DNA of 32,000 nucleotides from an uncultured Chloroflexia bacterium (GTDB lineage Bacteria > Chloroflexota > Ktedonobacteria > Ktedonobacterales > JADMIN01), in contig CAVRAI010000015.1 of assembly GCA_963718915.1 (NCBI GenBank), forward strand, positions 810,001 to 842,000, in the 5' to 3' direction. Position 1 is the stretch's first letter. Each line of letters starts with the position of its first letter. Position numbers and translations under genes: made by a program. Below the pieces are notes generated by a model. It ran no database searches, had not been told where the DNA came from, and worked only from the letters and a program-made list of their open reading frames with translations. This document shows positions 10,759 to 31,519 of this stretch, piece after piece.

Positions 10759-11898
10759 ATGAGCACGGCCAATACGGTGACACATGCGAAGTCTCCGTTT
10801 CTCTCGACGTTTCCAGGGCGATACTACTACGATCCGGCGATTTTCGCGCGCGAGCAAGAGCGTATCTTCTCGCGGATGTGGGTCTACGGCGGGGTAGCGA
10901 ACAGCCTCGCGAAGCCTGGCGACTATCGCACGCTGACCATCGCAAATGAGAGCGTTATCGTCGTCCGCACGAAACAGGGCGACTTGCGCGCGTTCCTCAA
11001 CGTCTGCCGCCACCGTGGCTCGCGGCTCTGCCCCGAGGCGTCCGGCCACCTGAACGGCTCGATTCAGTGCCGCTATCACGCCTGGACCTATGGGCTGGAT
11101 GGCAGGCTGATTGGCGCGCCAAACGTCTTCAATCGCCCCGAGTTCGAGCGCGACCTCTACGGTCTGCATCCCGTCGCGCTGGAGGTCTGGCAGGGGCTGA
11201 TCTGGATCAACCTCTCTGAGAATCCACCGTCGCTCGCCGAGCAGATGGATGACCCCATCGTGCGCGACTTCGGCAGCAACGCCTCGCTCGACCGCTATGG
11301 TATCGCCAACCTCCGGGTCGCGAAGACCATCACCTATGATGTGGCGGCCAACTGGAAGCTCATCATGGAGAACACGCTCGAGTGCTACCACTGCGGCCCG
11401 ATGCACCCCGAACTCTGCGCGCTCCTGCCGGAGTATAAGACGGGCGCCATCGATGGCAACGACGGCACGACGTTTGCCGATGGCGTCGAGGCGTTCACCA
11501 TCTCAGGCAAGGCCAGCCGTCCGCCGCTGCCGGGGCTGCTCCCTGAAGATACACACCGCTATGCCGGTTTCTTCGGCCTGCCCAGCATCTTCATCAACCT
11601 GCTCGGCGACCATGTGGCGATTGACTGGCTGGAGCCGCTGGGGCCGACCCAGACGCGCGTCACGACTGAATGGCTCTTCGATCCGCGGGCGATGGAAAGC
11701 CCAGACTTCGACCCGATGGATGCGGTGGCGATCCTGGATCTCGTGAACCACCAGGACTGGGTGGTCTGTGCGCTGGCGCAGCAGGGGATGACCTCGCGAG
11801 CATACGCGCATGGCGGCAACTATGCGCCGCTCGAACACCATATCCGCGATTTCGTGGACTATATCCTCGCGCGGCTGGGTGATGAGGGCGTGGAATAG
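10759..11898 (+). CDS. Rieske [2Fe-2S] aromatic-ring-hydroxylating oxygenase, alpha subunit
   Basis: Track ORF is 10717..11898; I prefer ATG 10759 (MSTANTV...). Rieske motif CRHRGSRLC-x17-CRYHAWTY. Mononuclear-iron region NWKLIMENTLECYHCGPMHPEL. The substrate cannot be told from the sequence. Confidence 0.85.
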   Translation: MSTANTVTHAKSPFLSTFPGRYYYDPAIFAREQERIFSRMWVYGGVANSLAKPGDYRTLTIANESVIVVRTKQGDLRAFLNVCRHRGSRLCPEASGHLNGSIQCRYHAWTYGLDGRLIGAPNVFNRPEFERDLYGLHPVALEVWQGLIWINLSENPPSLAEQMDDPIVRDFGSNASLDRYGIANLRVAKTITYDVAANWKLIMENTLECYHCGPMHPELCALLPEYKTGAIDGNDGTTFADGVEAFTISGKASRPPLPGLLPEDTHRYAGFFGLPSIFINLLGDHVAIDWLEPLGPTQTRVTTEWLFDPRAMESPDFDPMDAVAILDLVNHQDWVVCALAQQGMTSRAYAHGGNYAPLEHHIRDFVDYILARLGDEGVE

Positions 11899-11913
11899 AC
11901 TGGTGGGTCCACC

Positions 11914-13192
11914 TTACACTCTCCGGCGGCTCTTGCTGAGCGCCTTGCGAGAGAAGGTGAAGTCGAGGCCCTCGCGTTCGGCGAACTGCTGGAAGAGCGC
12001 GTAAAAGCGGGCGCGGTCCTCCGTTGAGATGACCGCCACAGCGTCCGCCGCCTCGATGGAATACGGGATAGCCCTGGCCTGTGATAATCTCGCCGCGCAG
12101 CACATCCATCACGCGGTCGAGCTGGCCATCGTTATCCTCCAGCAGCCACGCCGGAAACTCCACCCGCGCGGGCGGACGGTCACTCGCGGCGCGCAAGTAA
12201 ACGAACGCCACCGCGTCCGCGCCACCGCGATAGCCCATCGTCGTCAGGTCTTCGCGCGCCGAGATGAAGGCGGGCGTACGGTCTCCCCAGGCCAGCGCAT
12301 CGCCCCAGAGCAGCGCGTCGTGGATGCCGCGCGGTGGGGGTAGCTCGTCGCCATCGCCCGAGAGCGCGCGCAGCATCGTGATCGTATCGCGGGCATAACT
12401 GGTGTCGATGTAGCCGAGCAGCGGGATGCGGGTGCGGCGCGAGGCGTCGAGCAGGCGTTGCGCGGCGGCGGCATAGCGCACAGGATATGGCGGCGGCATT
12501 TTGATCGCGAACGAGACGATCAAGCTGCCATCGAAGAGCGCCACGACTGGCCTATCTTCACCCGCCTGCCGCCGTGCCATGTGATGTTCCAGTCGCTCGA
12601 CCAGCGTCTCCACCTCAAGCTCGAAGCGCCGCAGATGAACGATCCGCTCCGAGTAGCCCGCCGCCTCGTTCGTGCGCGCGTTCATCATGTCCGGTTCGCT
12701 CACCAGCAAATCTTCCGGCGGTAGCAACTCGGTGCGCACATCTTTGAGATAGGGAGCGGGCGGCTGGTGTGGATTCTCGTAGATGCCCGCCTGCACCAGC
12801 GCCACCGGCACCGAGGCGTCGCGCCAGGGAAGCAACTGGCTGCCGTCCACGGCGAAGGTGGCCGTGCCGCGCAGACCCTCGGCCCATGCGCGCGACTCCT
12901 CGTGATGGGCGAATGCGCGGCCAAACGGCAGCACGGGCGGCCCGGATCGTCCGAGTTGACGCCAGCGGTCGTACTCGCTCGTGGGGAGCGCGCCTGGCGT
13001 GTGGGATCGTTCGGCATTCGTCAGCGCGGCATCCAGCGCATGCCGTAGCGCCGCCGCGTCGGGATAGCGCGCGCCCAGGGTCGCCAGCGCCTCGCGCCAG
13101 GCATCACGTTGCTGGCCATAGCGTTCGTCGTAGGAGGTGAAGAGCGCCCGTTTGCGCTCCAGTTCGGCGACGAGCTTTTCCGTGTAAAGCAT
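11914..13192 (-). pseudogene. nurA: NurA-type nuclease domain protein (~425 aa), split by one extra base as assembled
   Basis: ORF 11660..13192 is sensible up to ...[14 protein letters not shown]. The reading then continues in ORF 11914..12105 ([37 protein letters not shown]...). The break is at 12064-12067 (TAT CCC G TAT). NurA-like blocks: [53 protein letters not shown] lies 8 nt before ATG 13192. Span is 1279 nt = 3n+1. Confidence 0.7.
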
Positions 13193-13243
13193 CGCGAAGC
13201 CCTCCTACGCGCTCGACCGGTGGCATGTCCGCCTGATTGCTAT

Positions 13244-14748
13244 TCATGGAGAACGAGCCTGAACTTTCACCGGGCAGAGCGGCGCGACCGTGATGGAGTA
13301 ATACGGTGTTTGGGCGTAGTCTGTCCAGCACCACGTAATCGGTCGCGCCAGAGATCGGACGCGATGTGGAAACGTAATATGTTCCCTGCGCCACCAGCTT
13401 AAAGGTATACCCTCCAGTCGTGGCATCCAGCGTGGTCGAGTATTCATCGGAGTAGTAAGAAGCGTGTTGAAGTTCATGTGCTTCGAGAGATGCACCGTCG
13501 GCGAGGGATTGGTCGGCGCGCCGGTGATGAAGCCGGTGACATCCTGTGGCGCATTCAGCGCGTTCTGTGCCGTCTTGGCCTCAGGCGTGTCCTTATAGCT
13601 CGTGACGAGCGTCGTGAAGGTGCTGACCGCGCCAGTGCACTGCTGACCACTGATCTGATCCTGCCCGTAGGCGAGGTAGGCGGTGGCGGCTTTGGCGTGC
13701 CCCTGGCTGGCGTACGCGCTGGAGGCGTATTGCGCTTCCAACGTGCTGAATTCGGTGATTGCTTGCTGGTAACGCTTCTGCTGCAACAACTGAGCGCCAT
13801 AGAGATAGTATGCCTCAGGCGTGACGTTGGCCAGTGTCGCCTGGCAATCGCTGTTACAGGCCGGGCTGGACACGAAGTTGGCGAAGGCGGTGATGGCGTC
13901 GCGATAGGGTACGCTGCTGGCGTCTTTCTTCATCCACGCCGCGTACGCCTGGAACTGGCCCATTTGCGCGCGCTGGAACGGCGTCTCCGCTCTTCTGATA
14001 ATCGTTGAGCACGCTCTGGAAGTGCGTCCAGCGCGCCCTGGTAATCGCCCCGCTGGAGCAATTGCTCGCCCCAGGCGTTCTGCACGCGCGCGATGTCGGG
14101 GGCATCTGGTCCGCTCTGTCCGCTCAGGCCATATTCGCGGATGGCCACGGCCCATTGCCCGCTCTTTTCCATTGCCTGCGCCTGCGCCAGATGGAGCGGC
14201 GCGCTGCCGACGAGGCCGACCACGCCAGAGGCGGCGAGGCCAGCCACCAGCACGAATGTCAGCAACGCGAAGATGAGCGAGCGTCGGCCCACGGCTGCCC
14301 GTAGCAGCGCGATCAGCCCGAAGACCACCGCCAGCGCCAGCGCGACGGTACCGATAGCCACCGCGCCGTCGGCCCAGTCGCCGCCGAGCAGCAGCACGCG
14401 CACGCCAAAGACGAGCGCCAGCAGCGCGATGCTTCCCGCAACGACGAGCAGCGAGACCGAGAGCGGGAAGGGGTTGCCAAGCGGCCCGCGGCTGCGTTCG
14501 GGAATCCGCGAGGAAATGACGGCCAATCGTCCAGATGCGGACGGCTGCGAGGGCATCTTTGGCCGAGATGGCGCTCTTCGTGCGGCCATAGCCTGACTGA
14601 TACCGCGATCCCGAACCGCTGGGGATGGGCGCTGGAAGGGGTAGTAGGGCATCCGTGGGACGGGCGTCAACGGCGGAGGCTTATGTGCCGGGGCGCCAGG
14701 CGCAGACTGCGCTGGCTGATCGCTTCGCTCGTTTGGTCGCTCGTCCAT
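13244..14748 (-). pseudogene. membrane-anchored TPR-like repeat protein with a C-terminal beta-sandwich; needs about four frame changes as assembled
   Basis: Sensible sequence hops across ORFs 13930..14772, 13854..14105, 13244..14155 and 13104..13394. The joined reading is ...AWGEQLLQRGDYQGALDA / FQSVLNDYQKSGDAVPA / AQMGQFQAYAAWMKKDASSVPYRDAITAF...TVHLSKHMNF / YYSDEYSTTLDATTGGYTFKLVAQGTYYVSTSRP.... The N-terminus is Pro-rich, followed by 3-4 TM helices (SVSLLVVAGSIALLALVFGV; AVAIGTVALALAVVFGLIALL; LIFALLTFVLVAGLAASGVVGLVG). ATG 14748 has a GGAGGGG Shine-Dalgarno sequence; ATG 14772 is the alternative start. Confidence 0.55.
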
Positions 14749-14855
14749 GGCCCCTCCATGACCTCTTCGCATCGCTCAAGACCCGCGCACGCGGCCATGA
14801 TGGCCCGGGCAGGCTGACAATCTGTATTGTACCGCAGCGGCAAACAAGCGGGAGC

Positions 14856-17800
14856 CTAAGCGGGGAGTAATGTCTCATGCTCGGCAATGACCGTCTGGCC
14901 ATTGCGCTTCTCCAGATGAATGACGTCGTCGAGTCCCTGCTCGAAGGTATCGTCATGGCTGATGACGAGCAGTTGATCGAAGCCACGCACGCGCCGGATC
15001 TGCTCGGCCAGATTGCCGCGCCGCTCGCCATCCATATTCTGCGTTGGCTCATCGAAGAAGGCGATATCGAGGCGTGAGAGCCGCCGGAGTAGCGCCAGTC
15101 GCACCGCCAGCGCCGCGCTCATCTGTTCGCCACCGCTAAGCTGGGCGAAGGTGCGCTCGCGGCCATCGCGCCGGAGGACGATCTCGTAATCATCCTGCCA
15201 TGCGAGTTCGGCGGAGCGGTCGCCCAGGATCTCGCCGAAGATGCGGTTGGCCTCGCGCGAGATGGCATGTAACTGGGCGCGGAGAATATTTGGCCCAGCC
15301 TCCTTGATGATGTCGCGGAACTGCTTGAGCATCTTGTCCAGGTCGTCGAGCGTCTGGCGTTCTTCGCGGGCTGCGTTCAGGTCGATCAGCAGCGCCTCGA
15401 CGCGGGCAATCTCGTCGGCGAGCCGCGCGCCATCCTGCTGCGTCCGCCGAAGCTCCGCCGTGCACTCGCCATGCGCGCGCCGCACCTCATCGCCGCGCGC
15501 GGTTACTGCTGCCAGCCTGGAGCTATCGAACTTCGCCGCCGCCTGCTCGTAGTCGCGCGTGGCCTTCTGGTGTCTGGTGGTCGCAGCGCGCGCTACCTGT
15601 TCCGCTGCCGCATACGCCTTCTTGCGCGCGCCATGTTGCGCCGCAAGTTGCTCGTTGTGTAGATAGCGCAGATGGCCATCACTCGTGCGCGTCCGTGCGT
15701 CTTCCAGTCGGGCCAGTTCGTCATCCAGCGCGGCGAAAGGCGCCAGCCGCTTATCGCACTCCGCCAGTTGGGCGTCGTGATCACGCAGAGCCGCTTGCGC
15801 GTGTTTGACGCGCGCTCGCCCTGTTCGAGATGTCGGCGGCGGTGGCGCGCAGCGATGCCGCCAGCCCGCGCGGATCGCCGAGGGCGGCGAGTTCCGTCTC
15901 GATGCGTTGCAGATCGGCAGAGGCTGATTCCATCCCCGTCAGTTCGCGCGCCAGCCGCTCCAGCTCGGCGTTGAGCGTATCGCGCCGGTCGCTGGACTCG
16001 CGTAGATGCGATTGGATGTCGGGCAGGCGGTTGCACTGCATCGCGGCGTCATTACTTCGGTCATAGCTGGCGCGCAGACGTTCGAGCGTGCGGGCGTCGT
16101 GGCCGTTGGCGAGCGTCACCTCGATCTGCCGCTGTTCCGTCGTCAATGCCGCAATCTCGTGCTCCAGTCGCTCGCGGTCTTCGGCGGCCTCGCGCTGTTT
16201 CTCCTCGAATTCACCGCGACGGTCCCAGTAGGAGAGGACCGTGCGGGCGTGATCTATCCGAGCCGCCAGCTCGTGCGCATCCTCCTCCAGCGGCGCAAGC
16301 TCCTGCTCGGCCTCGGCGATCATGCGGTCGAAGTAGGTGATGAGGCTGTTCTCGCCGCGCTTCTGGATGTTCAGGCACGGCTCGCGCAGAAAGGGGCAGT
16401 TGCCCACGCCGGACTGCTGCCGCGAAAGGCGATGCTGCTCGATACGCGCCTGCACCTGACGAATCTTGCCGTCGAGAGCTTTCTGCTCCGCCTCCAGGGC
16501 GGGGAAGCTCTCGACCACCGCCTGCTGCGCCACAATCTTGCGCAGGTTCGCCGTCGCCTTCTGCTCAAGTTGCGCCTTTTTCTCGCGTTGCGTCTGCTTT
16601 TCGGGCAATTGCTCGCGTACTGCTTTGAGCCGGGCGCTGCTCGTCTCCCAGGTCGCCTGGGCCGCCTGCGCCGCTTCAAGCTGGCCGCGCCGCTCGCTCA
16701 ACTCCTCGGCCTCGGGGCGAAGCTGCTCTAGCCGGGCGATCTGCTGCTCATCCTGCGTGCAGGCCTGTTGCGCCGCCTGCCACTCGCCCTCGATGCGTCG
16801 CCGTGCCGTTGCCATCTCGTCGCGCCGGGTGACACGCTGCCGGGCCGCCGTGCGCTCCTCTTCGAGCGTTCGTTGCCGTTCGGCTTTTGGCTCGACCTTC
16901 TCCAGCTCATGAGCAGCCTGTTCCGCCGCCGTCAATTGCTCCTGGCTGTGCGCTAGCTCCTTACGCGCGCCTTCCTGCGCCAGGGCCACTTTCGCCCGCT
17001 CCTCGCGCAGTTGCGAGCGCTGTTGTTCGCGGGCGCGCGCCTGGGCAAGCTGCTTCTCGGTCGCGAGAAACGATTCATGGTCGGGACGGCTCTCGGCGCA
17101 GATGCGCGTGGCCTCGGCGGCCTCGGCAAGCTGGCGCTCAGCCTCCATACGCTGGGACTCCGCCGCGCGATGTTCCGCCAGGGCGACATCTACCGCGCTT
17201 TGTAGCGCCGTCACCTGTTGCTTGCGCTCTTCCAGCGCTTTGCGTTCGGCCTCAAGGGTCTCGGTCTCGCGCTGGAGCCGTGCGAGCGTTTCCGTCAGCG
17301 TGCGCTCGCGCGCCCGCCCCTGCTCGAACTGCATGCGCCAGTCATCCAACTGCGCCGTCTCGCGTTCAAGGGCGTCGATATGGCGCTCCTGCTGGTGTTG
17401 CTGATCGGTCAGGTAGCTTTTCGCGGCCAGCAGCTTCTCGGAGGCGGTGCGATAGTCCTCCACCTGGAGCAGCGCGTCGAACTTCTTCTTGCGAACGGCG
17501 GGCGTCTGCAAGAAATCGGCGGTGAAGGTGCCCTGCGGCACGCCAACCGCGTCGTTGAAAAGCGTTTCGAGGTTGAGGTCGCTCTCGATGCGTAGATGCT
17601 GGCGCAGAAACGCGATGACGTCGGTCTTCTGCTCCACGACCCGTTCATCCAGGTCGGGATCGTAGATGTACCAGTCGGACGAGGAGCCGCAACGGCGCAC
17701 GGCGTGATACTCGCGGTCATCTAGCGCCGAGGTGAAGATGACGGTGACGACGCCGACCCTCTCGCCCTCGCGGACGAACTGCGCCTGTTTGTAGGGCAGC

Positions 17801-17949
17801 GCGTCGAAGAGCGCGAAACCGATGGCCTCGACCAGCGTGGACTTGCCCGCGCCGTTGCTGCCACGGATGGCGGTGGCGCCAGCCGCGAGGTCAATCCGCG
17901 TGTCGCGATAGCTCTTGATATTTTCGAGTCTGACGCTGTTGATTCGCAC
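14856..17949 (-). pseudogene. Rad50/SbcC-like SMC-type coiled-coil ATPase (~1030 aa), split by one extra base as assembled
   Basis: ORF 15781..17949 (GTG start) begins MRINSVRLENIKSYRDTRIDL...IRGSNGAGKSTLVEAIGFALF (Walker A). About 700 aa of Q/E/R/A/L-rich heptad-like sequence follows. After ...RATAADISNRASA the reading continues one base downstream (RVKHAQAALRDHDAQLAECDKRL...) into ORF 14856..15485. That ORF carries the signature motif LSGGEQMSAALAVRLAL and Walker B/D-loop LDIAFFDEPTQNMD, then LLVISHD. The break is at ~15808-15819 in a GCGCGCG run. Span is 3094 nt = 3n+1. Confidence 0.8.
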
Positions 17950-20625: not shown

Positions 20626-20972
20626 CGCTTCATCACTCCTATGTGGCTATTGGTGGGGATAATTCTCCGGGAAATGCTGTCCGTAGCGCGTCCAACTTCG
20701 TTGTCGACACACCTGTCGGAGTATAGCACGGTCGGCGCCTTGTGACTTTTCTAGCAGAGTGGCAATCCCTGTGGTGATATACTTCTATGAAACTCAGAGG
20801 CTTGTTTTATGCTCTGCATTAGTGACCTTCTATGGTGCAATTTATTGCGGATAGATGCCTGATGTCATGTAGGCTCCTGGCAGAGTTCCGCAGTCCGCGT
20901 AGGCGGACTTCGTGGCCGCGGGCCATTTAGGCGCGGCTCTAGTCGTCAGCCCGAAATAGATGAGGAAGTGCT

Positions 20973-23900
20973 ATGACCCAGGTGAGTCGGTATCTTGAGG
21001 CGGTTCGGCAGCGGGTGATTGTCTTCGATGGCGCGATGGGCACCATGATCCAGAATCTCGGTCTGGAAGCGGCTGACTATGGCGGCGAAAGCCTGGATGG
21101 CTGCCCCGAAATTCTCGTATTGTCCCGCCCTGACGCCATCCGCGACATCCACCGCGCCTATCTGGCCGCAGGCGCCGATGTGCTCGAGACCGACACCTTC
21201 ACCGGCACGCGCCTTAAGTTGGACGACTATGCTCTAGGCGCGCGCACGCACGAGATCAACACTGCCGCCGCCCGGCTGGCCCGCGCCGCCGCAGATGAGT
21301 TCAGCACCGCCGAACGCCCGCGCTTCGTCGCTGGCTCGATGGGGCCAACTGGTATGCTCCCGTCTTCGGATGATCCCGCCCTCTCGAATATCACCTATCA
21401 ACAGCTTGCCGAGATGTACCGCGAACAGGCGGCGGCGCTGATCGAGGGCGGCGTTGATCTGCTGCTGATCGAAACCAGCCAGGACATTCTGGAGGTGCGC
21501 GCTGCCATTACCGGCATACGCCGCGCCTGGGCCGAGACGGGCCGCCGCGTGCCGATTCAGGCGCAGGTCACGCTCGACACGTCCGGGCGGATGCTGCTGG
21601 GCACCGATATCGGCGCTTCCTCCACGATTCTGAGTCACCTGGGCGTGGATGTTGTGGGCCTCAACTGCTCAACCGGCCCGGAGCATATGCGCGAGCCGGT
21701 GCGCTACCTCACCGAGAATATCCCGCTGCCGATCTCGACGATCCCCAACGCGGGGTTGCCGCTCAACGTCAATGGACGCGCCATCTATCCGATGGAGCCG
21801 GAGCCGTTCGCCGCGGCCCTCGCCGAGTTCGTCGGCACGCTGGGGGTCAACATCATCGGCGGCTGCTGTGGCACGACGCCCGAACACATCGCGCGCATCG
21901 TCGCCCATCTGGACGATCTCGATTCCGCCCATCGCAGCCATCCCGTGCGGCGGCTGAACGACTTCTCCGATGAGACGCGCCACCGCACCCAGCAGCTGGT
22001 GGCCTCGGCCATGCGCGCCACCTCGCTGCAACAGGATCCGGCGCCGCTGCTAGTGGGTGAGCGTGTCAACTCGCAGGGCAGCCGCAAGGTGAAGCAGGCG
22101 CTGCTGGCCGACGACTACGACACGCTGCTCCAGGTGGCGCGGGCACAGGTGGATGGCGGCGCGCATGTGTTGGATGTCTGTGTCGCGCTGACCGAGCGCG
22201 CCGACGAGCCGGAGCAGATGAGCCGGTCGGTGAAGAAGCTGGAGATGGGTGTTGAGGCGCCGTTGGTGATCGATTCCACCGAGGCGGGTGTGATTCAGGC
22301 CGCGCTGGAGACCTATCCGGGCCGGGCCATTATCAATTCGATCAACCTGGAGAATGGCCGGGTGCGCGTGGATGCGGTGCTGCCGCTGGCGCGCGAGCAT
22401 GGGTCGGCGGTGGTCGCGCTGACGATTGACGAGGAGGGCATGGCGAAGACAGCGGAGCGCAAGCTGGCCATCGCCCAGCGTATCTTCGAGATCGCCACCA
22501 GCGAGTATGGACTGCCCGCCGAGGCGCTGCTCTTCGACGCGCTGACCTTCCCAGTCACCACCGGGCAGGAGGAGCTACGCGATAGCGCCGTGCAGACGCT
22601 CGAAGGCATCCGCCGCATCAAGGCGGAGCTGCCGGGCGCGCTGACCATCCTTGGCGTCAGCAACGTCTCTTTCGGTGTTACACCACATTCTCGCGCCGCG
22701 CTCAATAGCGTCTTCCTCTATCACGCCGTGCAGGCTGGGCTGGACGCCGCCATCGTCAATCCGGCGCATATCACGCCCTACGCGGAAATCCCGGAGGCCG
22801 AGCGCGCGCTGTGTGACGACCTGCTCTTCAATCGGAGCGAGGATGCCCTGCCGAACTTCATCGCTTACTACGAGCAGCACGGTGGCGAGCGACCGCAAGA
22901 GGAGAAGGCTGACCCCACCGAGGGGATGAGTGTGGATGAGCGCATCCACTATCAGATTCTCCATCGGCACAAGGAGGGCATCGAGGCGCTGGTAGATACC
23001 GCCATCACCACGACGCGCCGGGGTCTGAGGCGAATCCCGACGCGCCCGACTGGAAGACGACGCCGCAACTCTCGCAGGCGGCGGTGGAGGCGCTCAATGG
23101 CGTGCTGCTGCCCGCGATGAAGGATGTCGGCGACCGTTTCGGCGCGGGCGAGCTGATTCTGCCGTTCGTGCTGCAATCCGCTGAGGTGATGAAGAAGGCC
23201 GTCGCCCGGCTCGAACGCTATCTGGAGCGCACCGAGGGCTACACCAAGGGGCGCGTGGTGCTTGCTACCGTCTTTGGCGACGTGCATGATATCGGCAAGA
23301 ACCTGGTCAATACGATTCTGAGCAACAATGGCTATACCGTCTATGACCTGGGCAAGCAGGTGCCGCTCAACACTATCATCGACAAGGCGATTGAGGTGAA
23401 GGCTGATGTGATTGGCCTCTCGGCCCTGCTGGTTAGCACGTCGAAGCAGATGCCCGCATGCGTCGCGGAGCTGGATCGGCGGAAGCTGTCGTTCCCGGTG
23501 ATGGTTGGCGGCGCGGCGATCAATCGCGCCTATGGCCAGCGCATCCTCTACGTCGGCGAGCCGGGCCAGGAGCAGCCGTATGGACCGGGCGTCTTCTACG
23601 CGCGCGATGCCTTCGAGGGGCTTGAAATTGTCGAGGCGCTGACCGATGGCGAGAAGCACGAGACGTTCGTCGAGCGGGTGAAGCGCGAGGCGCAGTCGGC
23701 GCGTGAGCTCCAGGCTGAGCGCGAGGCGGCGCGTGCGTCTGCTCCAACAGTTGTGCAGGAGCATGCCCCGGTGACGCCTGCCCCGGTAATCGTCGCGCCG
23801 TTCTGGGGGCCGCGTGTGTTGGACCGCGTCGCCGTCGAAGACGTGGCGAACTATCTCGATAAAAATGCTCTCTATCGTGGGCGCTGGGGTGGCGTGGCGC

Positions 23901-24592
23901 ACGGCGAGGAGTATAAACGGCTGGTGCGCGAGGAGTTCGAGCCGCGATTGGAGCGACTGCTGCGCGAGGCCCGTCAGCGCCAATATCTCCGTCCACGCGC
24001 TGTCTACGGCTACTATCCGGCGCGCGCCGAGGGCGATACGCTGCTGGTGCTCGATCCATCCGACCCGACAAGCGTGCTGGAGCGGTTCGCGTTCCCCCGG
24101 CAGCCCGACGGCCAGCGCCTCTGCCTGGCGGACTACTTCGCCACCGAGAGCGGCGAGCCAACCGCCGTCGCCTTCCAGGTGGTGACGATGGGCAACCGCG
24201 CTTCACAGGAGACCGAGCGCATGCAGGCGGCAGGCGACTACTCCGAGGCGTACTTCCTGCATGGGCTGAGCGTCCAGATGGCCGAAGCGATGGCCGACTA
24301 TGTCAATCGACGTATCTGTGACGAGTTGAAGTTGACCGGCGAGGCGGGACGCCGCTATAGCTGGGGCTACGCCGCGATTCCAGAGTTGGCGGACCACGAG
24401 CGCGTCTTCCGGATGATGGGTGTGCCTGAGGCGATAGAGGTCACGCTCACCGAATCGTATCAGCTTGTGCCCGAACAATCGACCGCCGCGATTATTGTCG
24501 TGCCGCATCCCGGCTCGGTCTACTTTGCCGTGCGCGAGGCGGCGGCGAGTCAACGGCGGGGTAGGGTCAGTTCAGATTCACGTTCCAGATAG
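20973..24592 (+). pseudogene. metH: cobalamin-dependent methionine synthase (~1200 aa), frame broken once (-1 type) as assembled
   Basis: ORF 20973..23120 holds the Hcy-binding domain (VIVFDGAMGTMIQ...GGCCGTTPEHI) and the pterin-binding domain (LLVGERVNSQGSRKVKQAL). ORF 23084..24592 holds the B12 cap and B12-binding domain (GELILPFVLQSAEVMK; FGDVHDIGKNLV, i.e. DxHxxG) and the AdoMet-activation domain (RRYSWGYAAIPEL). The frame switches around 22995-23020 (...EGIEALVDTAIT / ...DAPGSEANPDAPDWKTTPQLSQAAVEALNG). The 3' end is duplicated at 27212-27287. Confidence 0.9.
24483..24564 (+). repeat. direct repeat copy 1: the resident 3' end of metH
   Basis: By hand alignment to 27212-27287, 74 of ~81 columns are identical: ccgccgcgattattgt[cgt]gccgca[t]cccggctcggtctactt[t]gccgtgcgcgaggcggcggcgag[t]caacg[g]cggggta. 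Confidence 0.85.
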
Positions 24593-25971
24593 TGAGCGTG
24601 TCGAAGTTCGTATCGAGGAAGAAGAGCCTGTTGCCCTTCGCGTTCCAGGCGAGCGCAGGCTGGGGCGTGAGACCCCCAAAGGTCCGCAGACGATTCGCTA
24701 GCGGATGTGTCTTCAGCGTGAGCAACTTCGTGCCGGTCGCGCTAGTCGAAGATGGTGACACTTTGGCTTGCGGCGGGAATATCCGATCCGAGATTCGCGA
24801 CAATCTGATCGATCAATGGATTCGGGTCGGTCGCCGCGATCAGTTTACCGTCTGCGCGCCAGGCCACCGAGGTCTGCGACGCGTACGGATCAGCAGGATC
24901 CTTGAGCCGTATGGCCGCCGCCATCAGTCCTTTGTCACGCGGGGCAACATGATACTCCCCATCGCTTCCCTGCGCATAGTCTGTTGCGGCAGAATCGAGT
25001 TCGCCGCCAGATCCCAACACTGGTATCAGGTAGCGGTCATCAGGCGACAAAATTGTCATATTCTCATTGAAAGAGAGTACGCTCTTTTTGCGATCCAGCA
25101 ACACCATTCCTGGCTGCCACATGGTGAACGACTGTCCGCCGGATGGGGTACCTACAGGCGTAGTGGTTGAGGGATTAGGCGCCGCGACGAGTTTGCCATC
25201 GGAACTCCACCGATAGGCAGTCGCAATTGGCAGATTCGTGTTGCTATGTATCACATGATTTGCCTGAATGTCCCAATAGTCATAACCGTAGAATGCTGCA
25301 CTGGTGATCGCCTTCACTGCTTGCCCGTCCACTGGAGCCACCACTACGCCACTCACGGCAAGGAATGAGGTATTGTCAGGGCCAGCCATCATCCAAAATG
25401 GCAGCATCACCCGCTTGCCATCGAGCGCCCAGACGAGTCCCCAAAACTGAGGATAGACCAGAGATGATGGTGTGTCGGCCTTCGTGTATCCAGGAATGCT
25501 CGTATCTATGTCGATCTGCCGGACCAGATTGCCACGGGTATCGAGGATCGCGACCACATTTTGCGTGACGATTCCCGCGTCAGGATTGCTGCAGGCCCCG
25601 AGCTTCGCGAGTACCGCGACCTGTTGACCATCGGGCGACCATGCCGCAAAGGTTGGGCAGAAAAGGTTACCGTCAGCGAGGTTGATGCTGGTGACGTTGC
25701 TGGCGAGCTTTGCGTGCTGCTGCCAGGGAAACAGCCCCTTCCACGCGGCCCCTGCCGAGACGAGGACCACGACCGCCACGAGTATCGCCAACAACGTTGG
25801 CCACGGCCGTCTGCGTGATGGTGTATTTGCAATACGCATCGGAGCAGGATTGCCAGAATCGGGCATGGCTTGTGTGGCCCCGGCGAGTTTGCGCATGGCG
25901 GCGATCCGCTGGTTGCGCGCTACATCATCATTCCAACTGGCATTCTCTGGAGGCACATTCTCTTGGCTCAT
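24567..25971 (-). pseudogene. membrane-anchored beta-propeller protein (PD40/WD40-like repeats, ~467 aa), split by one extra base as assembled
   Basis: ORF 24742..25971 has an N-terminal TM helice (WPTLLAILVAVVVLVSAGAAW) and repeats of the type AAWSPDGQQVAVLA, YRWSSDGKLVAA, VAWRADGKLIAAT. It ends ...SQSVTIFD*. The reading continues +1 in ORF 24567..24803 (ATGTKLLTLKTHP...LAWNAKGNRLFFLDTNFDTLTIWNVNLN). The break is at 24741-24747 (GAC T AGC). Span is 1405 nt = 3n+1. Confidence 0.65.
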
Positions 25972-26010
25972 GTCGACTCCGGGAAGTTCACAGCAATTGG
26001 GTGGATCATG

Positions 26011-26544
26011 CTAGTCTTGCATCTCTACAATTGCTTGCCACTCTACCGTGCCTTCGATGGTGGCGCTAACTGTCACTGAATGATTACCCGACGGAGGCTG
26101 AAATACGGAGGTTCCGTTCAGTTCTGGCGTTGCAGTGCATGGACTGGATTCTGTCGCCTGGGGATAGGTGATATGCAAAGTGCCCGATCCTTTGCAGGTA
26201 TAGAAAAGTTTGTAGGATTTGGTTGCTACAAAACTTCCAGCAAACGTCTGAGATGTCGCAGACGTGTTTCCAAGCGTGAGTACGATATGCCACCCTTTCT
26301 CTGCTGTCAATGGTGGCAACGTTGCTACTGTGGTTGGCGATGCGGGCATAGTCGGCGTTGGAGTTAGTGTCTTGATAGCGGTTGAGCCATCACAGGCTGT
26401 CATAAAAAGAGTAACAAGCGACGATACAAGCAATGTTGTCACAAGCAAACACATCCTGGATGCGCATCGCGATTGGGAAATATAAGACACTCGTATCATC
26501 CTCTCGATCATACTATGGAGGACACCAGCATGAGTGTGAGACAA
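26011..26544 (-). CDS. small secreted lipoprotein, family unknown
   Basis: 177-aa ORF with internal ATGs at codons 12, 16 and 31. It has a signal-like segment and lipobox: ...SRMCLLVTTLLVSSLVTLFMTAC-DGS. The mature part is Thr/Pro-rich then beta-rich. It sits 39 nt upstream of the propeller gene. GC is ~48%. Confidence 0.55.
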   Translation of the reverse strand: MSHTHAGVLHSMIERMIRVSYISQSRCASRMCLLVTTLLVSSLVTLFMTACDGSTAIKTLTPTPTMPASPTTVATLPPLTAEKGWHIVLTLGNTSATSQTFAGSFVATKSYKLFYTCKGSGTLHITYPQATESSPCTATPELNGTSVFQPPSGNHSVTVSATIEGTVEWQAIVEMQD

Positions 26545-26677
26545 TCCATCTCATACCCATGCTGGTGTGCATGATGTGCGTCTGAGACGTTCTCAGCATC
26601 TTGTCAGGAACCAAAAAGCGTCATTATCCTGTCAGGATGCGTCATGGCTGATTGGGTCGCCCTGATTAGGAGCCTAT

Positions 26678-27097
26678 TCAGGTATTCCAATTTGGATACC
26701 AGGGACTACGCGCTGTAACTGTACCTTTGTCGTTTGTTATCGCGCAATTGCTCGCGAGATAGTAGTAGTGACCGGTGGTCACCTTTTGAAGGACTCCATA
26801 TTGCCCGTAGCCTGCCTTGTGCGCCGGAACTGATATGGCCATGCTGTGCCCGATAGTGGTGGAAATTGAGGTGGTAACCGTGATGCCCAGCGTAGCGTTT
26901 ACACCTGCAACGATCACGCTTGCATCAACTGTCGCACTCACGTTTATCGAAACGGAAACCGTGCCAGTGACCAGTGCACTAAATGTTTCCGTTGCGCTGG
27001 TGGCATTGCTATTATAGGCTCTATATGCAGATGCCCCATTTGGTTGGTCTGCTGGATATGGGCCAGAGAAAATTGGCGCAACTATAAAATACGACAT
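26678..27097 (-). CDS. small Ser/Thr/Val-rich beta-protein, family unknown; N-terminus uncertain
   Basis: 139-aa ORF. No other ATG/GTG/TTG lies in frame back to the stop at 27221-27223. An out-of-frame ATG at 27126 would give a better signal peptide (MAS.CALLFGMSYFIVAPIFSG), so another indel is possible here. Confidence 0.4.
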   Translation of the reverse strand: MSYFIVAPIFSGPYPADQPNGASAYRAYNSNATSATETFSALVTGTVSVSINVSATVDASVIVAGVNATLGITVTTSISTTIGHSMAISVPAHKAGYGQYGVLQKVTTGHYYYLASNCAITNDKGTVTARSPWYPNWNT

Positions 27098-27211
27098 CCC
27101 GAACAGAAGAGCGCACAGGATGCCATGTGTTAGCTGTCTCCACCGAACGAGCGTGTAGAAGGTATGTGTCTGGGGTAGCTGAGCTTCCAGGTGACGCTGA
27201 ATGATGCGCCG

Positions 27212-27287
27212 CCGCCGCGATTATTGTGCCGCACCCCGGCTCGGTCTACTTCGCCGTGCGCGAGGCGGCGGCGAGCAACGCGGGGTA
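27212..27287 (+). repeat. direct repeat copy 2: orphan relic of a metH 3' end (last ~24 codons plus TAA)
   Basis: It reads in frame AAIIVPHPGSVYFAVREAAASNAG-TAA (stop at 27286-27288) and is preceded by an in-frame TGA at 27202-27204. It lies 4 nt from the stop of the convergent anti-sigma-like gene (27293). Confidence 0.85.
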
Positions 27288-27292
27288 AGCCG

Positions 27293-28579
27293 CTAATTGT
27301 CGCCTCCGACCGTACCGGTAGGGGTAGCTGAACCGCCCGGCGAACCGTGGTGATCGCCGCCGTGATCGTCGTTCTCAGGAGTCTGTTGAGCGCCAGGCGT
27401 ATCGTCGTCGTTTTCCTCATGGCTGGTTATACTCGTCGTGACCGCCGCCGTATTGTCGGGGTTGCCCACGCCGATTGTGCTTGGCCGTGGCGCGTCATCG
27501 TCGCCCGACATCCGCGCGACCAGCTTCGTTGGTGTCACAGAGATAGTGGCGCTGACGGGCTGTCCATTCACCAGCAGCACGGCGCCCTGCTGAAAGCCTG
27601 ATCCAGAGACGGTGACTGTCCAGAGATGCTGGTCATGCTCGGAATAGACCATATTGGCCTGCGTGACCGTTAGCACCTGGTCGCCAATCTCGGCGAGCAC
27701 GCCCGTCGTCTCGATGCGCTCCGGCCATGGCAAAATGGCGAGCGCGGTATGCAGGTCGGCGATTCCCGTGGTACGCAGTTGTTCCAGTTGTGACGAGAGA
27801 GAGTCCCGTGCGTCGCCAGCGGGCACATTATCCAGATTGGTCGCGGCGGCGCGCGCCTCATCCCGGAAAGTCGCCAGCGCGTCGTCATACGTCGCGCCGG
27901 TCTGGCGGTTCGCGACCGCGGAGTTCAGGGCAAGCAGGGCATCTTGCGCATTGCTGATATGGAGTTGCGTGCGGTCGGCTGCGCTGCCAGTGATATTCGC
28001 CTGAAGATTCTGCTCCCACCGATGCAGGCCATAGAAAGGCGAACCCGGTCCGGCAAACGCCGCAGCCGTAAAGGTTGTCATGCCAATGGTGAAGAGCAGA
28101 GTCGCTGCCAGTGCGGGCCAGAGCAGCCGTCTCCACACGGGTCGGCGGCGCGTGGCGAACGGACGCGCTATTGATGGGATGTCTGGTAGCGTGGCGTCAT
28201 TCGCTGCGGCGCCCCACTCAATGCCTGGCAGCGTAGGGTCGTCGTTTCCCAGGAATGGCGGTGTCTCGATCAGTGGAAGAGGAGTTGTGTCGTCCGTGAG
28301 CGGCATTGGAGCAATACTATCGCGCTCTCGCAGGTATGCGGCGCGGGCAAGGAACAGCGCCTCCAGGTGAGCGACGAAGGCCTGCGATGGCTCCTCATCT
28401 CCCAGCTCGGCGACGCGATCCGCGGCGTCAAGCAGTGGCTGAAGATCCCCAGCTACGCCAGTGCCATTGGCCGATGGCCGCTCAGTTCGCCCTCGTCGCG
28501 CGTCCACACGGAGGGTGAGCAGGGTGTCGAGCCTATCTTCGGGTAGCATTGCCCTTCCCTCCTTTCCGTGCTGTCGCAT
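27293..28579 (-). CDS. anti-sigma-like membrane protein (DUF5667-like extracytoplasmic domain) with an Asp/His/Gly-rich tail
   Basis: 428-aa ORF directly downstream of, and overlapping, the ECF sigma gene. Single TM helix (LLWPALAATLLFTIGMTTFTAAAFAG), then FYGLHRWEQNLQANITGSAADRTQLHISNAQDALLAL.... C-terminus: ...SHEENDDDTPGAQQTPENDDHGGDHHGSPGGSATPTGTVGGDN. ATG 28549 is an alternative start. Confidence 0.65.
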   Translation of the reverse strand: MRQHGKEGRAMLPEDRLDTLLTLRVDARRGRTERPSANGTGVAGDLQPLLDAADRVAELGDEEPSQAFVAHLEALFLARAAYLRERDSIAPMPLTDDTTPLPLIETPPFLGNDDPTLPGIEWGAAANDATLPDIPSIARPFATRRRPVWRRLLWPALAATLLFTIGMTTFTAAAFAGPGSPFYGLHRWEQNLQANITGSAADRTQLHISNAQDALLALNSAVANRQTGATYDDALATFRDEARAAATNLDNVPAGDARDSLSSQLEQLRTTGIADLHTALAILPWPERIETTGVLAEIGDQVLTVTQANMVYSEHDQHLWTVTVSGSGFQQGAVLLVNGQPVSATISVTPTKLVARMSGDDDAPRPSTIGVGNPDNTAAVTTSITSHEENDDDTPGAQQTPENDDHGGDHHGSPGGSATPTGTVGGDN

Positions 28580-29198
28580 GTCCAGAATCGTCGGGGACTT
28601 GAGTACGATCCGCGATGTTCAGATAGCGCGCCAGCGATGCCAGAGCACGGAATTGCAGGGCGCGAATGGCGTTCGGCTGCTTCTCGAGCAGATGCGCGAC
28701 ATCCTCGGTGGAGTAGCCTAGCACGCAGCGATAAAGGATGACCGCCCGCTGGTCCTCGGTGAGCCGGTTGAGTCCCGCGACGACCTCAGACCAGCTTTCC
28801 CGCGCTGTAATAATCGTCAGGGGATCGCCTTGTTCGGCGACGGCCCACGGTTGCTCGCTCTCCGGGAAGAGTTGGGACGCCTCCGGGCGCGTTCGCTGCC
28901 GTCGGTAGTGCGTGGCGACTTTGTTGCGCGCGATGCCAAGTACCCAGGCCGCGAAGGTCAGTTCGTCGTGCGCGCGCATGGTTCCGATGCTATTAATGAC
29001 CGCAATGAACGTCTCGGAGGTGATATCCTCGGCTGTCTGCACCGCGCCGATACGCGCCAGCACAAAGCGATAGACTACGGGCAGAAAGCGACGGTAGAGC
29101 ATCCCCAGCGCCGACTGGTCAAGCGCCCGCGCGCGTTCGAGCGCAAGGCTGAATGGAAGCGCGGGAGGCCAGGTCATGCCTGTCCCCGCGTTTCCCAT
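28533..29198 (-). CDS. ECF-type sigma-70 family RNA polymerase sigma factor
   Basis: Track ORF 28533..29468 has a nonsense Thr/Ala-rich 5' extension that overlaps the upstream gene. The real start is probably ATG 29198 or ATG 29177. Region 2: LGMLYRRFLPVVYRFVLARIG...AEDITSETFIAV. Region 4: LTEDQRAVILYRCVLGYSTEDVAHLLEKQPNAIRALQFRALASLARYL. Confidence 0.85.
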   Translation of the reverse strand: MGNAGTGMTWPPALPFSLALERARALDQSALGMLYRRFLPVVYRFVLARIGAVQTAEDITSETFIAVINSIGTMRAHDELTFAAWVLGIARNKVATHYRRQRTRPEASQLFPESEQPWAVAEQGDPLTIITARESWSEVVAGLNRLTEDQRAVILYRCVLGYSTEDVAHLLEKQPNAIRALQFRALASLARYLNIADRTQVPDDSGHATARKGGKGNATRR

Positions 29199-29304
29199 AC
29201 CCCATGTTGTGTTGTCAACCCTGCCGGGTATCGCCGAGCCGCGATCAGCCAAGAATAGGAAGCCTCTCTGGACGAACATCGCGCTGATAGGTCGAGCTAG
29301 TCGG

Positions 29305-29889
29305 CTAGTTGTGGGGCGAGCCGTCGTCTTGACCGCCGTGACCAGACCCACCAGAACCATCGCCGCTGTGATCGTCAACGCTGGGTGTCGCGCTACCGCT
29401 GCCTGAGCCGCTATCGTTGTCGCCGCCATGACCATCGTTGCTGCCGTCGTCCGCGTCCTCGTTGTCACCGTGGACTTTGGTGGCTGTTAGTGTACCATCC
29501 GCCTGCGGGTTACCATCAACCTCGATAGACATTCCGGTTTTGAGGTCGCCAAAGCTGTGCGGACCATCGGTGAAGACCGTCGCCGAGTTCACGACGACCG
29601 TTACGGATGAGCCGTGTTCGGTCTTGACGACGAAACGTGAGTTGCCGGGGTCAATACTGCTGATGGTTCCCTCGGCCTCATGGCCGTCATGTTGGTCGTT
29701 ATCATGTTGGACATTGTTCTGCTGACCACCAGTATGCTGTGATGATGGTGTCTGGGACGCGAACGGCATATGGAGGTCATTGCCATTCGCCGCCAACGCG
29801 GCGGCGCTCCCAGCGCTCGCAATCAGGACTGCCCCGGCGATGGCGACCGCGATCTTATTACGGAGCAGGTGTGTCAGTCTCCCTGGCAT
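29305..29889 (-). CDS. secreted/anchored DUF5666-like beta-barrel protein with an Asp/His/Gly/Ser-rich tail
   Basis: Track ORF is 29305..29976; I prefer ATG 29889 (MPGRLTHLLRNKIAVAIAGAVLIASAGSAAALA, a signal or anchor). Core: EGTISSIDPGNSRFVVKTEHGSSVTVVVNSATVFTDGPHSFGDLKTGMSIEVDGNPQADGTLTATKVH. Tail: GDNEDADDGSNDGHGGDNDSGSGSGSATPSVDDHSGDGSGGSGHGGQDDGSPHN. Confidence 0.6.
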   Translation of the reverse strand: MPGRLTHLLRNKIAVAIAGAVLIASAGSAAALAANGNDLHMPFASQTPSSQHTGGQQNNVQHDNDQHDGHEAEGTISSIDPGNSRFVVKTEHGSSVTVVVNSATVFTDGPHSFGDLKTGMSIEVDGNPQADGTLTATKVHGDNEDADDGSNDGHGGDNDSGSGSGSATPSVDDHSGDGSGGSGHGGQDDGSPHN

Positions 29890-30163
29890 AACGTCTCGAT
29901 TCCTCCCCGATTCCTTTGCGCACCATGTGTGCGGTGTATCGTTCGCGGGCGCCCTGCGACGACGTGTGTTGTACATGACATGTCACAGAGGAAGTCGCGC
30001 AGTGAGGGTGAAATGTTATGGCTGCCATCTGATTCCTGGCGCAATCTGCTACGATTTGCCTCGTTTCTGGCTTCTGTCTGCTACGTTCGGCGGTGTAGAC
30101 TATGAGCAGAGACCATTCTGCGCCGAGGCAGAAGCGGGTGTTTTTGACAGGAGGCTGTGACGC

Positions 30164-31519
30164 ATGGCGGATGTGCTGGGCGAGCTTGAACAGTATATCG
30201 AGGATCACCTGGCGGAGTCCCTGGAGGATCTGCGGCGACTGACCGCTATCCCCAGTGTATCGAGCAAACATGAGGGCATCGACGATGCGGCGGCGTTCGT
30301 GCGCGAGCTGCTGGCGGCTGCTGGCTTCGAGGCGCGGGTGATGCCGACGAGCGGGCATCCGGTTGTCTACGCCGACTCTGGCGGTAGCGGCAAGACGCTG
30401 CTCTGCTATAACCACTACGATGTCCAGCCCGCCGAGCCGCTGGATTTGTGGGAGTCACCGCCGTTCGAGTTGACCGAGCGCGATGGCCGTGTCTATGCGC
30501 GTGGCGTCTCGGATGACAAGGGACAGTTGATCTCGCGGCTGGCGGCGATTCGCGCGGTGCGCGCGGTGACGGGCGGCCTGCCGGAGCGCGTCAAGTTTCT
30601 GGTCGAGGGCGAAGAGGAGATCAGCAGCCCCAGCCTCGAACCATTCGTCGAGGAGCAACACGACCTGCTGGCCGCCGACGCCTGTGTCTGGGAGTTCGGT
30701 GGTGTCGATCCCAACGGGCGGCCTGAGGTGGTGCTGGGCCTGCGCGGCATTCTCTACGTCGAGTATCGCGTGCGAACGCTCTCGCGCGACGCGCACTCCG
30801 GCAGCGCCCACAATCTGCCAAACGCCGCGTGGCGGCTGGTGCGCGCGCTCAACACGATCCAGGGAGCCGATGGGCGTGTCCTGATCCCTGGCTTCTACGA
30901 CGCGGTCCAGGGGCCAACAGATACCGATCTGCAACTGCTGGCGGGGCTGCCTTCCTCTGAAGAGTTCTATCACGAGCACTTTGGCGTCAAGGAGTTCGTC
31001 AACGGCCATACCGGCATGGACTACCGGACTGCGGTTTACGAGCCGACGGCCAATATCGCGGGCATCGGCGCGGGCTGGCAGGGGCAGGGGTCGAAGACGG
31101 TCATCCCGGCCTATGCAATGGCCAAGATGGACTTCCGCCTCGTGCCTGATCAGGATCCCGAGGATCTCTTCGCGAAGCTGCGCAAGCATCTCGACGACGG
31201 CGGGTTCGGCGATGTCGAGGTGGTGAAGCTAGGCGGCGAGCGGGCCGCGACCACACCCGGAGACGATCCGTTTGTCCAGTTGACGGCGCGGCTGGCGTCG
31301 GAGGTCTATGGCAAGCCCGCGGTGATCGACCCGCTGGTTGGCGGAACTGGCCCGGTCTATCCCTTCCGTGCGTTCCTGGGCACGCCCATCGTGACGCTCG
31401 GCCCTGGCGACCCACTCTCCAACGCGCACTCGCCCAACGAGAGCATGTCCATCGCCAACTTCCTGCTAGGTACGAAGCATATGGCGCGGCTGCTGGTGGA
31501 GTTTGGCGACCTGCAGTGA
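30164..31519 (+). CDS. M20 family dipeptidase/metallopeptidase (ArgE/DapE/ACY1/CPG2/YscS group)
   Basis: 451-aa intact ORF. Metal and catalytic blocks: LLCYNHYDVQP, ARGVSDDKGQL, FLVEGEEEISSPS, PNESMSI near the C-terminus. Confidence 0.85.
   Translation: MADVLGELEQYIEDHLAESLEDLRRLTAIPSVSSKHEGIDDAAAFVRELLAAAGFEARVMPTSGHPVVYADSGGSGKTLLCYNHYDVQPAEPLDLWESPPFELTERDGRVYARGVSDDKGQLISRLAAIRAVRAVTGGLPERVKFLVEGEEEISSPSLEPFVEEQHDLLAADACVWEFGGVDPNGRPEVVLGLRGILYVEYRVRTLSRDAHSGSAHNLPNAAWRLVRALNTIQGADGRVLIPGFYDAVQGPTDTDLQLLAGLPSSEEFYHEHFGVKEFVNGHTGMDYRTAVYEPTANIAGIGAGWQGQGSKTVIPAYAMAKMDFRLVPDQDPEDLFAKLRKHLDDGGFGDVEVVKLGGERAATTPGDDPFVQLTARLASEVYGKPAVIDPLVGGTGPVYPFRAFLGTPIVTLGPGDPLSNAHSPNESMSIANFLLGTKHMARLLVEFGDLQ

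Follow-up and report, generated by a model that had tools for sequence, protein, structure and literature searches.

The locus described here raises a simple question: how did the 3' end of metH, the gene of cobalamin-dependent methionine synthase, come to stand twice in the same orientation on one contig, with three minus-strand genes between the two copies? The locus lies in a 32,000-nucleotide stretch (the window, to which all coordinates refer) from an uncultured Ktedonobacterales bacterium (Chloroflexota), namely positions 810,001 to 842,000 of contig CAVRAI010000015.1 in assembly GCA_963718915.1. A previous annotation made from the letters alone (the sequence-only reading) took the repeat for an att-like scar of site-specific integration. 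We compared the window with related loci, which are given below by handles such as L001, and the comparison leads to a different answer: with a probability of about 75%, the feature is the scar of a microhomology-mediated illegitimate recombination that stacked two alternative gene modules on each other.

In this clade of the Ktedonobacterales, the interval between metH (plus strand) and a Peptidase_A4 gene (PepA4, minus strand) is a variable slot between convergent genes. Two kinds of filler, both on the minus strand, are found in it: module 1, which consists of a propeller gene with or without a lipoprotein gene and a gene called sec, and module 2, which consists of an anti-sigma gene, an ECF sigma factor gene and a DUF5666 gene. 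The window holds both modules, and the second copy of the metH end lies between them.

Two copies of the metH 3' end

The gene and the two copies of its end are as follows.
20973..24564, plus strand: metH, cobalamin-dependent methionine synthase (Pfam S-methyl_trans, Pterin_bind, B12-binding_2, B12-binding and Met_synt_B12)
24483..24564, plus strand: copy 1, the functional metH 3' end, contiguous with module 1
27209..27288, plus strand: copy 2, an orphan relic of the metH 3' end, contiguous with module 2

A repeat search of the window aligned 24483-24549 with 27209-27275 over 67 nt without gaps at 88% identity. Gapped global alignment of 24483-24564 with 27209-27287 covered the 82 nt of copy 1 with 74 identical columns, one 3-nt indel and two 1-nt indels; the number of identical columns is the same count that had been made by hand, so the computed repeat is not weaker than the one first described. 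To judge its significance, the local alignment score was compared with 200 shuffles, and the same test was run on 152 loci. The window scored 123, while the shuffles had a mean of 23 and a maximum of 33 (n=200), and the 152 loci had a median of 23 and a 95th percentile of 28. The direct repeat itself is therefore well borne out. A long metH-end duplicate was present in only 3 of the 152 scanned loci, with the window counted among them, and the idea that the metH end is a common att site was rejected because long duplicates are so rare.

Copy 2 is preceded by an in-frame TGA (27202-27204) and ends with the stop TAA at 27286-27288, which is 4 nt from the stop of the convergent anti-sigma gene (CTA 27293-27295). 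The GCCG spacer between the two stops is identical in L005, a genome in which the site is empty. Copy 2 was rightly described as an orphaned terminus with an upstream stop, abutting the anti-sigma gene and still contiguous with that block; in the position first given for it (27212-27287) the end was one base short, since TAA ends at 27288. Copy 1 has a 3-nt ATT insertion and 2 extra tail bases relative to L081, L084 and L001, and all the differences listed for it before (the 3-nt indel, the substitutions and the two extra tail bases) are present. The inserted genes follow directly on the functional metH end, as the term surrogate end had implied. An ATTATT variant is specific to the window and present in both of its copies, which supports gene conversion and suggests that the two copies interact. 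On the minus strand the ATTATT of copy 2 reads AATAAT and has TAGACC 17 nt upstream (27220-27248), which makes a promoter-like site facing the truncated sec gene; the promoter scan overall found 4 sites against 2.5 expected, which is not above shuffles.

In the window metH appears as two open reading frames (ORFs), 20973-23120 and 23084-24592, split by 1-nt insertions near 23013 and 23026; intact orthologs of 1194 aa are found in L001 and L084. Copy 1 is thus fused to metH as had been claimed, but not to a full-length frame, which is broken at about 23013-23026. The natural stop is TAG 24562-24564, and relatives stop at the corresponding TAG. Two extra bases near 24551 in the metH tail had been taken to move the stop 28 nt downstream; the bases are there, but a real shift of the stop is doubtful and probably an artefact. 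Comparison with intact orthologs in L001, L002, L084 and L005 revealed 1-nt frameshifts in most long genes of the window, among them an insertion at 24743 in the propeller gene, a frameshift at about 20237 in the FAA-hydrolase gene, one at about 15815 in the gene of a 1032-aa Rad50/SbcC-like ATPase and two (about 14028 and 13977) in the gene at 13460-14772. Because nearly every long gene is affected, the pattern suggests an indel-prone, probably long-read-only assembly and not a locus in decay. Assembly error is therefore the most likely source of the insertions that shift the stop in the metH tail, and most likely also of what looks like pseudogenisation here (metH and the propeller gene split, the metH stop shifted); pseudogene calls in the window are unreliable.

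Both parental arrangements occur among relatives

Module 2 alone is present in L002, L005 and L003, where metH is directly followed by the anti-sigma, ECF sigma and DUF5666 genes. These are the empty sites for which the sequence-only reading had proposed to look: a single metH end faces the anti-sigma gene, and the 2.6-kb insertion in the window relative to such relatives is genuine. Alignment of the window to the empty sites joins 24560 to 27209 across the gap, and in L005 and L002 the metH and anti-sigma stops are 4-13 nt apart.

Module 1 alone is present in L081, L082 and L083. Here metH has one end only, without a duplicate, and the propeller gene converges on it as its immediate neighbour; the sigma/anti-sigma block is absent, and PepA4 lies directly upstream of the propeller gene, without the lipoprotein and sec genes. 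The window aligns to L081 over 20956-25781 at 90.5%, and its metH runs uninterrupted into the propeller gene as it does in L081-L083.

Both modules together are found in L001, L084/L085/L137, L165 and L170, in addition to the window. The window, L001, L002 and L005 are about equidistant, with approximately 90% nucleotide identity in metH and 91% in the M20 peptidase gene for all pairs, which means that occupancy of the slot follows no simple phylogeny; for the same reason the window and L001 were rejected as sister lineages. In L170 (Logan SRR16630557_1768043) the contig of 3264 nt is the cassette bounded by both metH-end copies and has identical 29-nt ends. These ends could equally well be a break of the assembly graph at the repeat or come from a circular excision product.

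The far junction joins PepA4 to metH

What lies immediately before copy 2 is decisive for the origin of the repeat.
27176..27218, minus strand: relic of a Peptidase_A4 (eqolisin-type) gene, its last ~14 codons (43 nt)
27212..27218, strand not applicable: junction microhomology CCGCCGC, from a three-way anchored comparison with both parents

The reverse complement of the relic encodes GGGASFSVTWK, which is the C-terminus of PepA4, with the stop codon mutated. The intact PepA4 protein ends with ...GGGTSFSVTWKHS* and matches Pfam Peptidase_A4 at 5e-41. At the nucleotide level the relic is 88-93% identical to the PepA4 3' ends of L081, L083, L084 and L165, of which L083 and L084 have the intact gene, L081 a contig-truncated gene with an intact 3' end, and L165 a partial gene. 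The sequence-only reading had counted exactly three minus-strand genes between the copies; the three genes are there, but this fourth feature had been missed.

CCGCCGC encodes Gly codons in the PepA4 3' end and Thr-Ala-Ala codons in metH. The microhomology is perfect over 7 nt and matches at 9/10 positions over 27209-27218. In the window and L001 the junction tracks PepA4 to 27218 and metH from 27212. The same CCGCCGC junction is present in L001 and L170, and in L170 the PepA4-derived sequence runs on into the native 3' flank of PepA4. What these alignments show is a join of two unrelated gene ends at a microhomology and not an att core.

Other hybrids have other breakpoints

In the window, L001 and L170 the metH relic begins about 80 nt before the stop; the distance is about 65 nt in L165, about 17 nt in L084 and about 70 to 85 nt in L029. 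L165 is an independent locus with the gene order of the window. Its metH relic begins at TGCCGCATCC, approximately 65 nt before the stop, and is fused to approximately 300 nt of PepA4, which reach from ...NFTLTISDS to the PepA4 stop. This junction has a 6-nt microhomology, TGCCGC, which was checked against the intact parents, and its breakpoints differ from those of the window in both genes. In L084 about 17 nt of the metH end (CTTCGACGGCGGGATGA) are kept before the anti-sigma stop, and PepA4 stands intact on the right side of module 2. The L084 locus also has a 448-nt segment (13641-14089, 58.8% GC) in place of sec, the PepA4 relic and most of the metH relic.

The relics of L165 and L084 have the module-2-type tail (CTTCGACGGCG...TGA), while their functional metH ends have the module-1-type tail with TAG, so the two ends come from two different parental alleles. 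A further, analogous hybrid with different cargo was found in a more distant lineage, L029 (CAVTFE010000058, 11450-12480): here an approximately 1-kb DUF433/DUF5615 toxin-antitoxin-like pair directly follows metH and is itself followed by a metH-end duplicate of 65-85 nt, and L087 is the matching empty site. L009 shares the left flank of L029 over the first ~45 nt downstream of metH only. A fixed crossover had been considered from the apparently shared boundary of L029, and it was dropped because closer alignment and the L165 and L084 junctions show differing breakpoints. The same hybrid outcome arose at least twice, via different breakpoints.

How the hybrid may have formed

The two parental arrangements can be seen directly in the genomes, and so can the hybrid, the relics and the microhomologies. 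From them we propose a single illegitimate recombination event, between one allele with module 1 and another with module 2, as the common origin of the window, L001 and L170. DNA ending in the PepA4 3' end of the module-1 allele would have been joined, at the GC-rich CCGCCGC, to the metH of the module-2 allele about 80 nt before its stop, and the other side would have been resolved by ordinary homologous recombination in a conserved flank, either metH or M20/PepA4. The M20 gene, which is 91% identical across the genomes, is a conserved anchor of this kind. Such an event would be homology-facilitated illegitimate recombination (HFIR) or, equivalently, an unequal crossover between alleles, and either the module-1 or the module-2 allele could have been the resident one, with the other incoming. 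The product would be an intact metH, then module 1, then the PepA4 3' relic joined to the metH 3' relic, then module 2. The repeat would thus consist of one parental metH end that was kept as an orphan by the anti-sigma gene and of the functional metH end that belongs with module 1. At the level of enzymes we infer a RecA anchor combined with either microhomology joining or template switching.

The proposal predicts an intact PepA4 to the right of module 2, as found in L084 and L003. It would also account for the recurrence of short metH-end duplicates: because the metH and anti-sigma stops are so close to each other (L005, L002), only joins that duplicate a short piece of gene end would leave both genes intact, and long duplications would presumably be lost by homologous recombination. 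The sequence-only reading had listed capture by recombination as its third alternative, which comes closest to the truth.

Several points weigh against this proposal. Among the relatives looked up, we did not find an intact precursor with metH facing the propeller, lipoprotein and sec genes followed by a complete PepA4. The relic tail in the window and L001 resembles the module-1 type (AAASNAG) and not the module-2 type, so a later gene conversion, or a module-2 parent with that tail, is needed. No recombination breakpoint was detected inside metH by sliding-window identity, and all ingroup genomes are at about the same distance from one another. In the experimental work on HFIR, recipient DNA is usually deleted and not duplicated. 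Finally, three of the metH breakpoints fall within a narrow range, -65 to -85, which might be explained by selection and repeat stability.

A bolder reading is that the slot is a dedicated, recombinase-free hot spot of cassette exchange in the Ktedonobacterales, with the gene-end relics serving as portable homology arms; we regard it as rather doubtful. If it were true, modules would be looped out, transferred and re-inserted or stacked between species, and they would include a fast-diversifying three-gene unit whose sec product is possibly an aerolysin-like pore-forming toxin. It would explain why the hybrid junction occurs in non-sister lineages, why cassette alleles of 35-54% identity lie inside flanks of about 90%, and why the L170 contig has identical ends.

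Alternative explanations

The alternative that survives best, though we consider it unlikely, is an intragenomic tandem duplication of the interval from the metH end to the PepA4 end, followed by differential loss or replacement of genes. Topologically, the join of the PepA4 3' end to the metH 3' end is exactly what a tandem duplication at a microhomology would leave. Bacteria frequently undergo tandem duplication at microhomologies, and in the window and L001 both metH ends have the same tail type, as would be expected if they came from one allele. But no gene is common to the two copies of the slot, which would call for several additional deletions or replacements, all of them precise. The relic has another tail type than the functional end in L165 and L084, which points to two parents, and both single-module alleles exist in relatives.

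Less probable again is a recombinase-free insertion of the Campbell type, in which a circle carrying module 1 and about 80 bp of the metH end entered by a RecA-dependent single crossover, and the repeats could later loop the segment out. Repeats of 80 bp are long enough for RecA-dependent exchange, the shared ATTATT indicates that the copies interact, lineages that are not sisters share the hybrid junction, and the two ends of the L170 contig are identical, all of which would suit such a circle. This explanation could cover only later spread or loss and not the formation of the locus, since the origin of the chimeric PepA4-metH junction would still need an illegitimate event; the circles are also without direct evidence. 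We give it a low probability.

Site-specific integration, the explanation first offered, would have a tyrosine or serine recombinase insert the element at an attB in the metH 3' end, the element supplying the surrogate end and the integrase having been lost or acting in trans. Much of what was observed has this appearance: the insert is flanked by direct repeats of the gene's 3' end, empty sites exist, the cargo is lower in GC, its occurrence among equidistant relatives is patchy, another cargo sits at almost the same position in L029, the first and last 29 nt of the L170 contig are identical, and e14 likewise leaves a 163-bp pseudo-icd (PMC6379469). However, the right boundary is the truncated end of a host gene (43 nt of PepA4 in the window, about 300 nt in L165) joined at a microhomology, and the independent events break at about -80, -65, -17 and -70 to -85, with no fixed crossover. 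The propeller gene adjoins a single metH end in L081-L083, which is the arrangement that the sequence-only reading had itself named as evidence against an att site. No tyrosine or serine recombinase was detected by a Pfam scan of the window ORFs and of the L001 and L029 insert genes, and the inserts of L084, L165 and L170 have only homologs of the same three genes, so the earlier remark that no recombinase is present was correct for the whole 32-kb window and extends to every insert. The cargo is also without PHROG matches, except for a non-significant one between sec139 and phrog_16793 (E 0.004). The differing breakpoints largely refute site-specific integration, and what had been called an att-like scar is highly improbable as such.

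A transposon or insertion sequence does not fit either: there is no transposase in the window, there are no inverted repeats at the boundaries, and the duplication is about 80 bp long, not 2-15 bp. A chimeric or duplicated join made by the assembler, which the indel-prone assembly of the window might suggest, is already refuted and has a negligible probability, since the same junction and architecture are present in independent assemblies of other samples (L001 and L170) and a variant of them in L165.

Genes carried between the copies

Under the preferred explanation, a microhomology-mediated hybrid of two alleles, the genes between the copies are module 1 of one parent. The interval contains the propeller, lipoprotein and sec genes.
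24567..25971, minus strand: module 1 gene 1, membrane-anchored beta-propeller protein (weak Pfam PD40 repeats)
26011..26544, minus strand: module 1 gene 2, small lipoprotein-like protein of 177 aa (signal sequence with Cys)
26678..27097, minus strand: module 1 gene 3, small secreted beta-rich protein sec, 5'-truncated

The GC content between the copies is 54.0% (propeller 57.4, lipoprotein 48.9, sec 49.8), compared with 65.1% in metH, 63.1% in the anti-sigma gene and 61-65% in the flanks. The compositional dip is real but smaller than the hand count had given: the values of 47-48% against flanks of 60-75% do not hold for the whole interval, and 47-48% fits its right half only.

The propeller gene is split by the insertion at 24743 into ORFs 24742-25971 and 24567-24803, and an intact ortholog of 486 aa is present in L001. 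The family is small and restricted to the clade, its closest allele being that of L081 (91-95% nucleotide identity), and the translation has a hydrophobic segment at its N-terminus. The lipoprotein has no match in Pfam, PHROG, PADLOC or NCBIfam; it is 91-93% identical to the L084 and L170 alleles and 35% identical to that of L001, which has an LVGC lipobox. At 26522-26568, overlapping the lipoprotein gene at its 5' end, there is an inverted repeat whose 20-nt arms are 90% complementary and whose loop has 7 nt.

In the window sec has 139 aa and no signal peptide, and elsewhere it has 196-212 aa. Approximately 440 nt of L170 are absent from the window between 27086 and 27175, and the 5' end of sec with its signal peptide is gone relative to L170 and L001. 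The Pfam search with sec gave no match. Its AlphaFold model has a mean predicted local distance difference test (pLDDT) score of 65, and Foldseek returned weak matches (best E 5e-3, template modelling (TM) score about 0.24), nearly all of them aerolysin-type pore-forming toxins; a profile search against the PDB weakly matched the pore-forming lectin CEL-III (E 0.029). The weak matches (parasporin-2, epsilon toxin, lysenin and CEL-III) are thematically consistent, and the segment is Ser/Thr-rich with alternating polarity. Taken from a model and weak similarities, this is a hint that sec may be an aerolysin-type pore-forming toxin, which we treat as a lead and not as a finding. For the cargo as a whole there was no match in PADLOC or NCBIfam, and in PHROG only the non-significant one given above.

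Together, sec, the lipoprotein and the propeller form a conserved three-gene unit, which also occurs away from metH: it adjoins grpE in L167-L169, and the sec-lipoprotein pair occurs alone in L164 and L166. No gene-end relics were found around the module in the non-metH context of L167, where 245 nt of upstream sequence were covered. In L164 (Ga0679431_0002604, flipped 1108-2289) metH abuts the anti-sigma gene, which is the module-2 type, and the sec-lipoprotein pair lies on the other side of metH, past the FAA-hydrolase and DinB genes, adjoining a fragment of a DDE_Tnp_1 transposase.

The cargo proteins of the window are 54%, 35% and 49% identical to those of L001, against about 90% in the flanks. 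Its cargo alleles are close, at 90-95%, to those of L081, L084 and L170. Such a pattern would fit a diversifying locus that is exchanged through conserved flanks.

Module 2 and the right flank

To the right of copy 2 the window continues with the following genes.
27293..28579, minus strand: module 2 gene 1, anti-sigma-like membrane protein (weak DUF5667 and TIG; CoaZ repeat)
28533..29468, minus strand: module 2 gene 2, ECF-type sigma factor (Sigma70_r2, r4_2; NCBIfam sigma70-ECF)
29305..29976, minus strand: module 2 gene 3, DUF5666 protein (DUF5666)
30164..31519, plus strand: M20 peptidase gene, the conserved right flank of the variable slot

Between the DUF5666 and M20 genes, L003 and L084 have an intact PepA4 gene. 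A 24-nt inverted repeat links metH and the anti-sigma gene (23969-23992 and 27537-27560, 22/24 complementary; 0 in 100 codon shuffles), and it is not conserved in six relatives (10-15/24). Further to the left, a cluster of the DNA-repair type at 11660-17949 comprises a NurA-domain nuclease (11660-13192), the Rad50/SbcC-like ATPase (14856-17949, frameshift-split) and an unannotated gene between them.

Comparison with known systems

The closest known process is HFIR, which is summarised in PMC6382021 as a RecA-dependent homologous anchor combined with joining at 3-10-bp segments, and for which that paper cites work in Acinetobacter baylyi, Streptococcus pneumoniae and Pseudomonas stutzeri (de Vries & Wackernagel 2002; Prudhomme et al. 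2002; Meier & Wackernagel 2003). The window resembles it in three ways: on one side the acquired DNA runs on into a conserved homologous anchor, either metH or M20/PepA4; on the other it meets unrelated sequence in a short, GC-rich microhomology, of 7 and 6 nt here and of 3-10 bp in published cases; and no dedicated recombinase takes part. It differs in that the case is reconstructed from natural genomes and was not seen in transformation experiments, and in that the product keeps both parental gene sets together with a short gene-end duplication, where the usual event deletes recipient DNA. The hosts here are also uncultured and filamentous, and a part played by RecA is putative, as is any route of uptake.

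The likeness to e14 and phage 21 is real. These integrate in the 3' end of E. coli icd, supply a surrogate end and leave a 163-bp pseudo-icd (Hill et al. 1989, as summarised in PMC6379469). In the window, too, a housekeeping gene has the insert in its 3' end, the functional gene end runs directly into the insert, an orphan pseudo-end stands at the far side (icd' 163 bp; metH about 80 bp), and relatives have empty sites. But e14 has its own integrase and a fixed att core, whereas the window has no integrase, its far junction is a chimera with the end of another host gene, and the breakpoints of the independent events differ. With tandem duplications the locus shares the topology of the join point, although the two slot "copies" hold unrelated modules. 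With flexible genomic islands such as O-antigen and capsule loci, which are exchanged by way of the conserved genes at their sides, it shares deeply divergent alternative alleles between conserved genes (cassette proteins 35-54%, flanks about 90%), but on a small scale (3-7 kb) and with a cargo of uncharacterised envelope or secreted proteins.

The feature is thus a recombination scar of a known kind, unusually well documented through its parents and independent recurrences, and it belongs to ordinary genome plasticity. The biological payoff is modest: the cargo is a module of uncharacterised envelope or secreted proteins that diversifies fast, and it stands downstream of an ECF sigma/anti-sigma operon. 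For programs that call islands and prophages it is a caution, since a duplicated 3' gene end, lower GC and an empty site are together insufficient for an att call, and the partner at the junction has to be inspected. Beyond that, the locus is a natural example of how new gene neighbourhoods can form without mobile-element machinery, in which the parents, the hybrid and the junctions can all be read from genomes.

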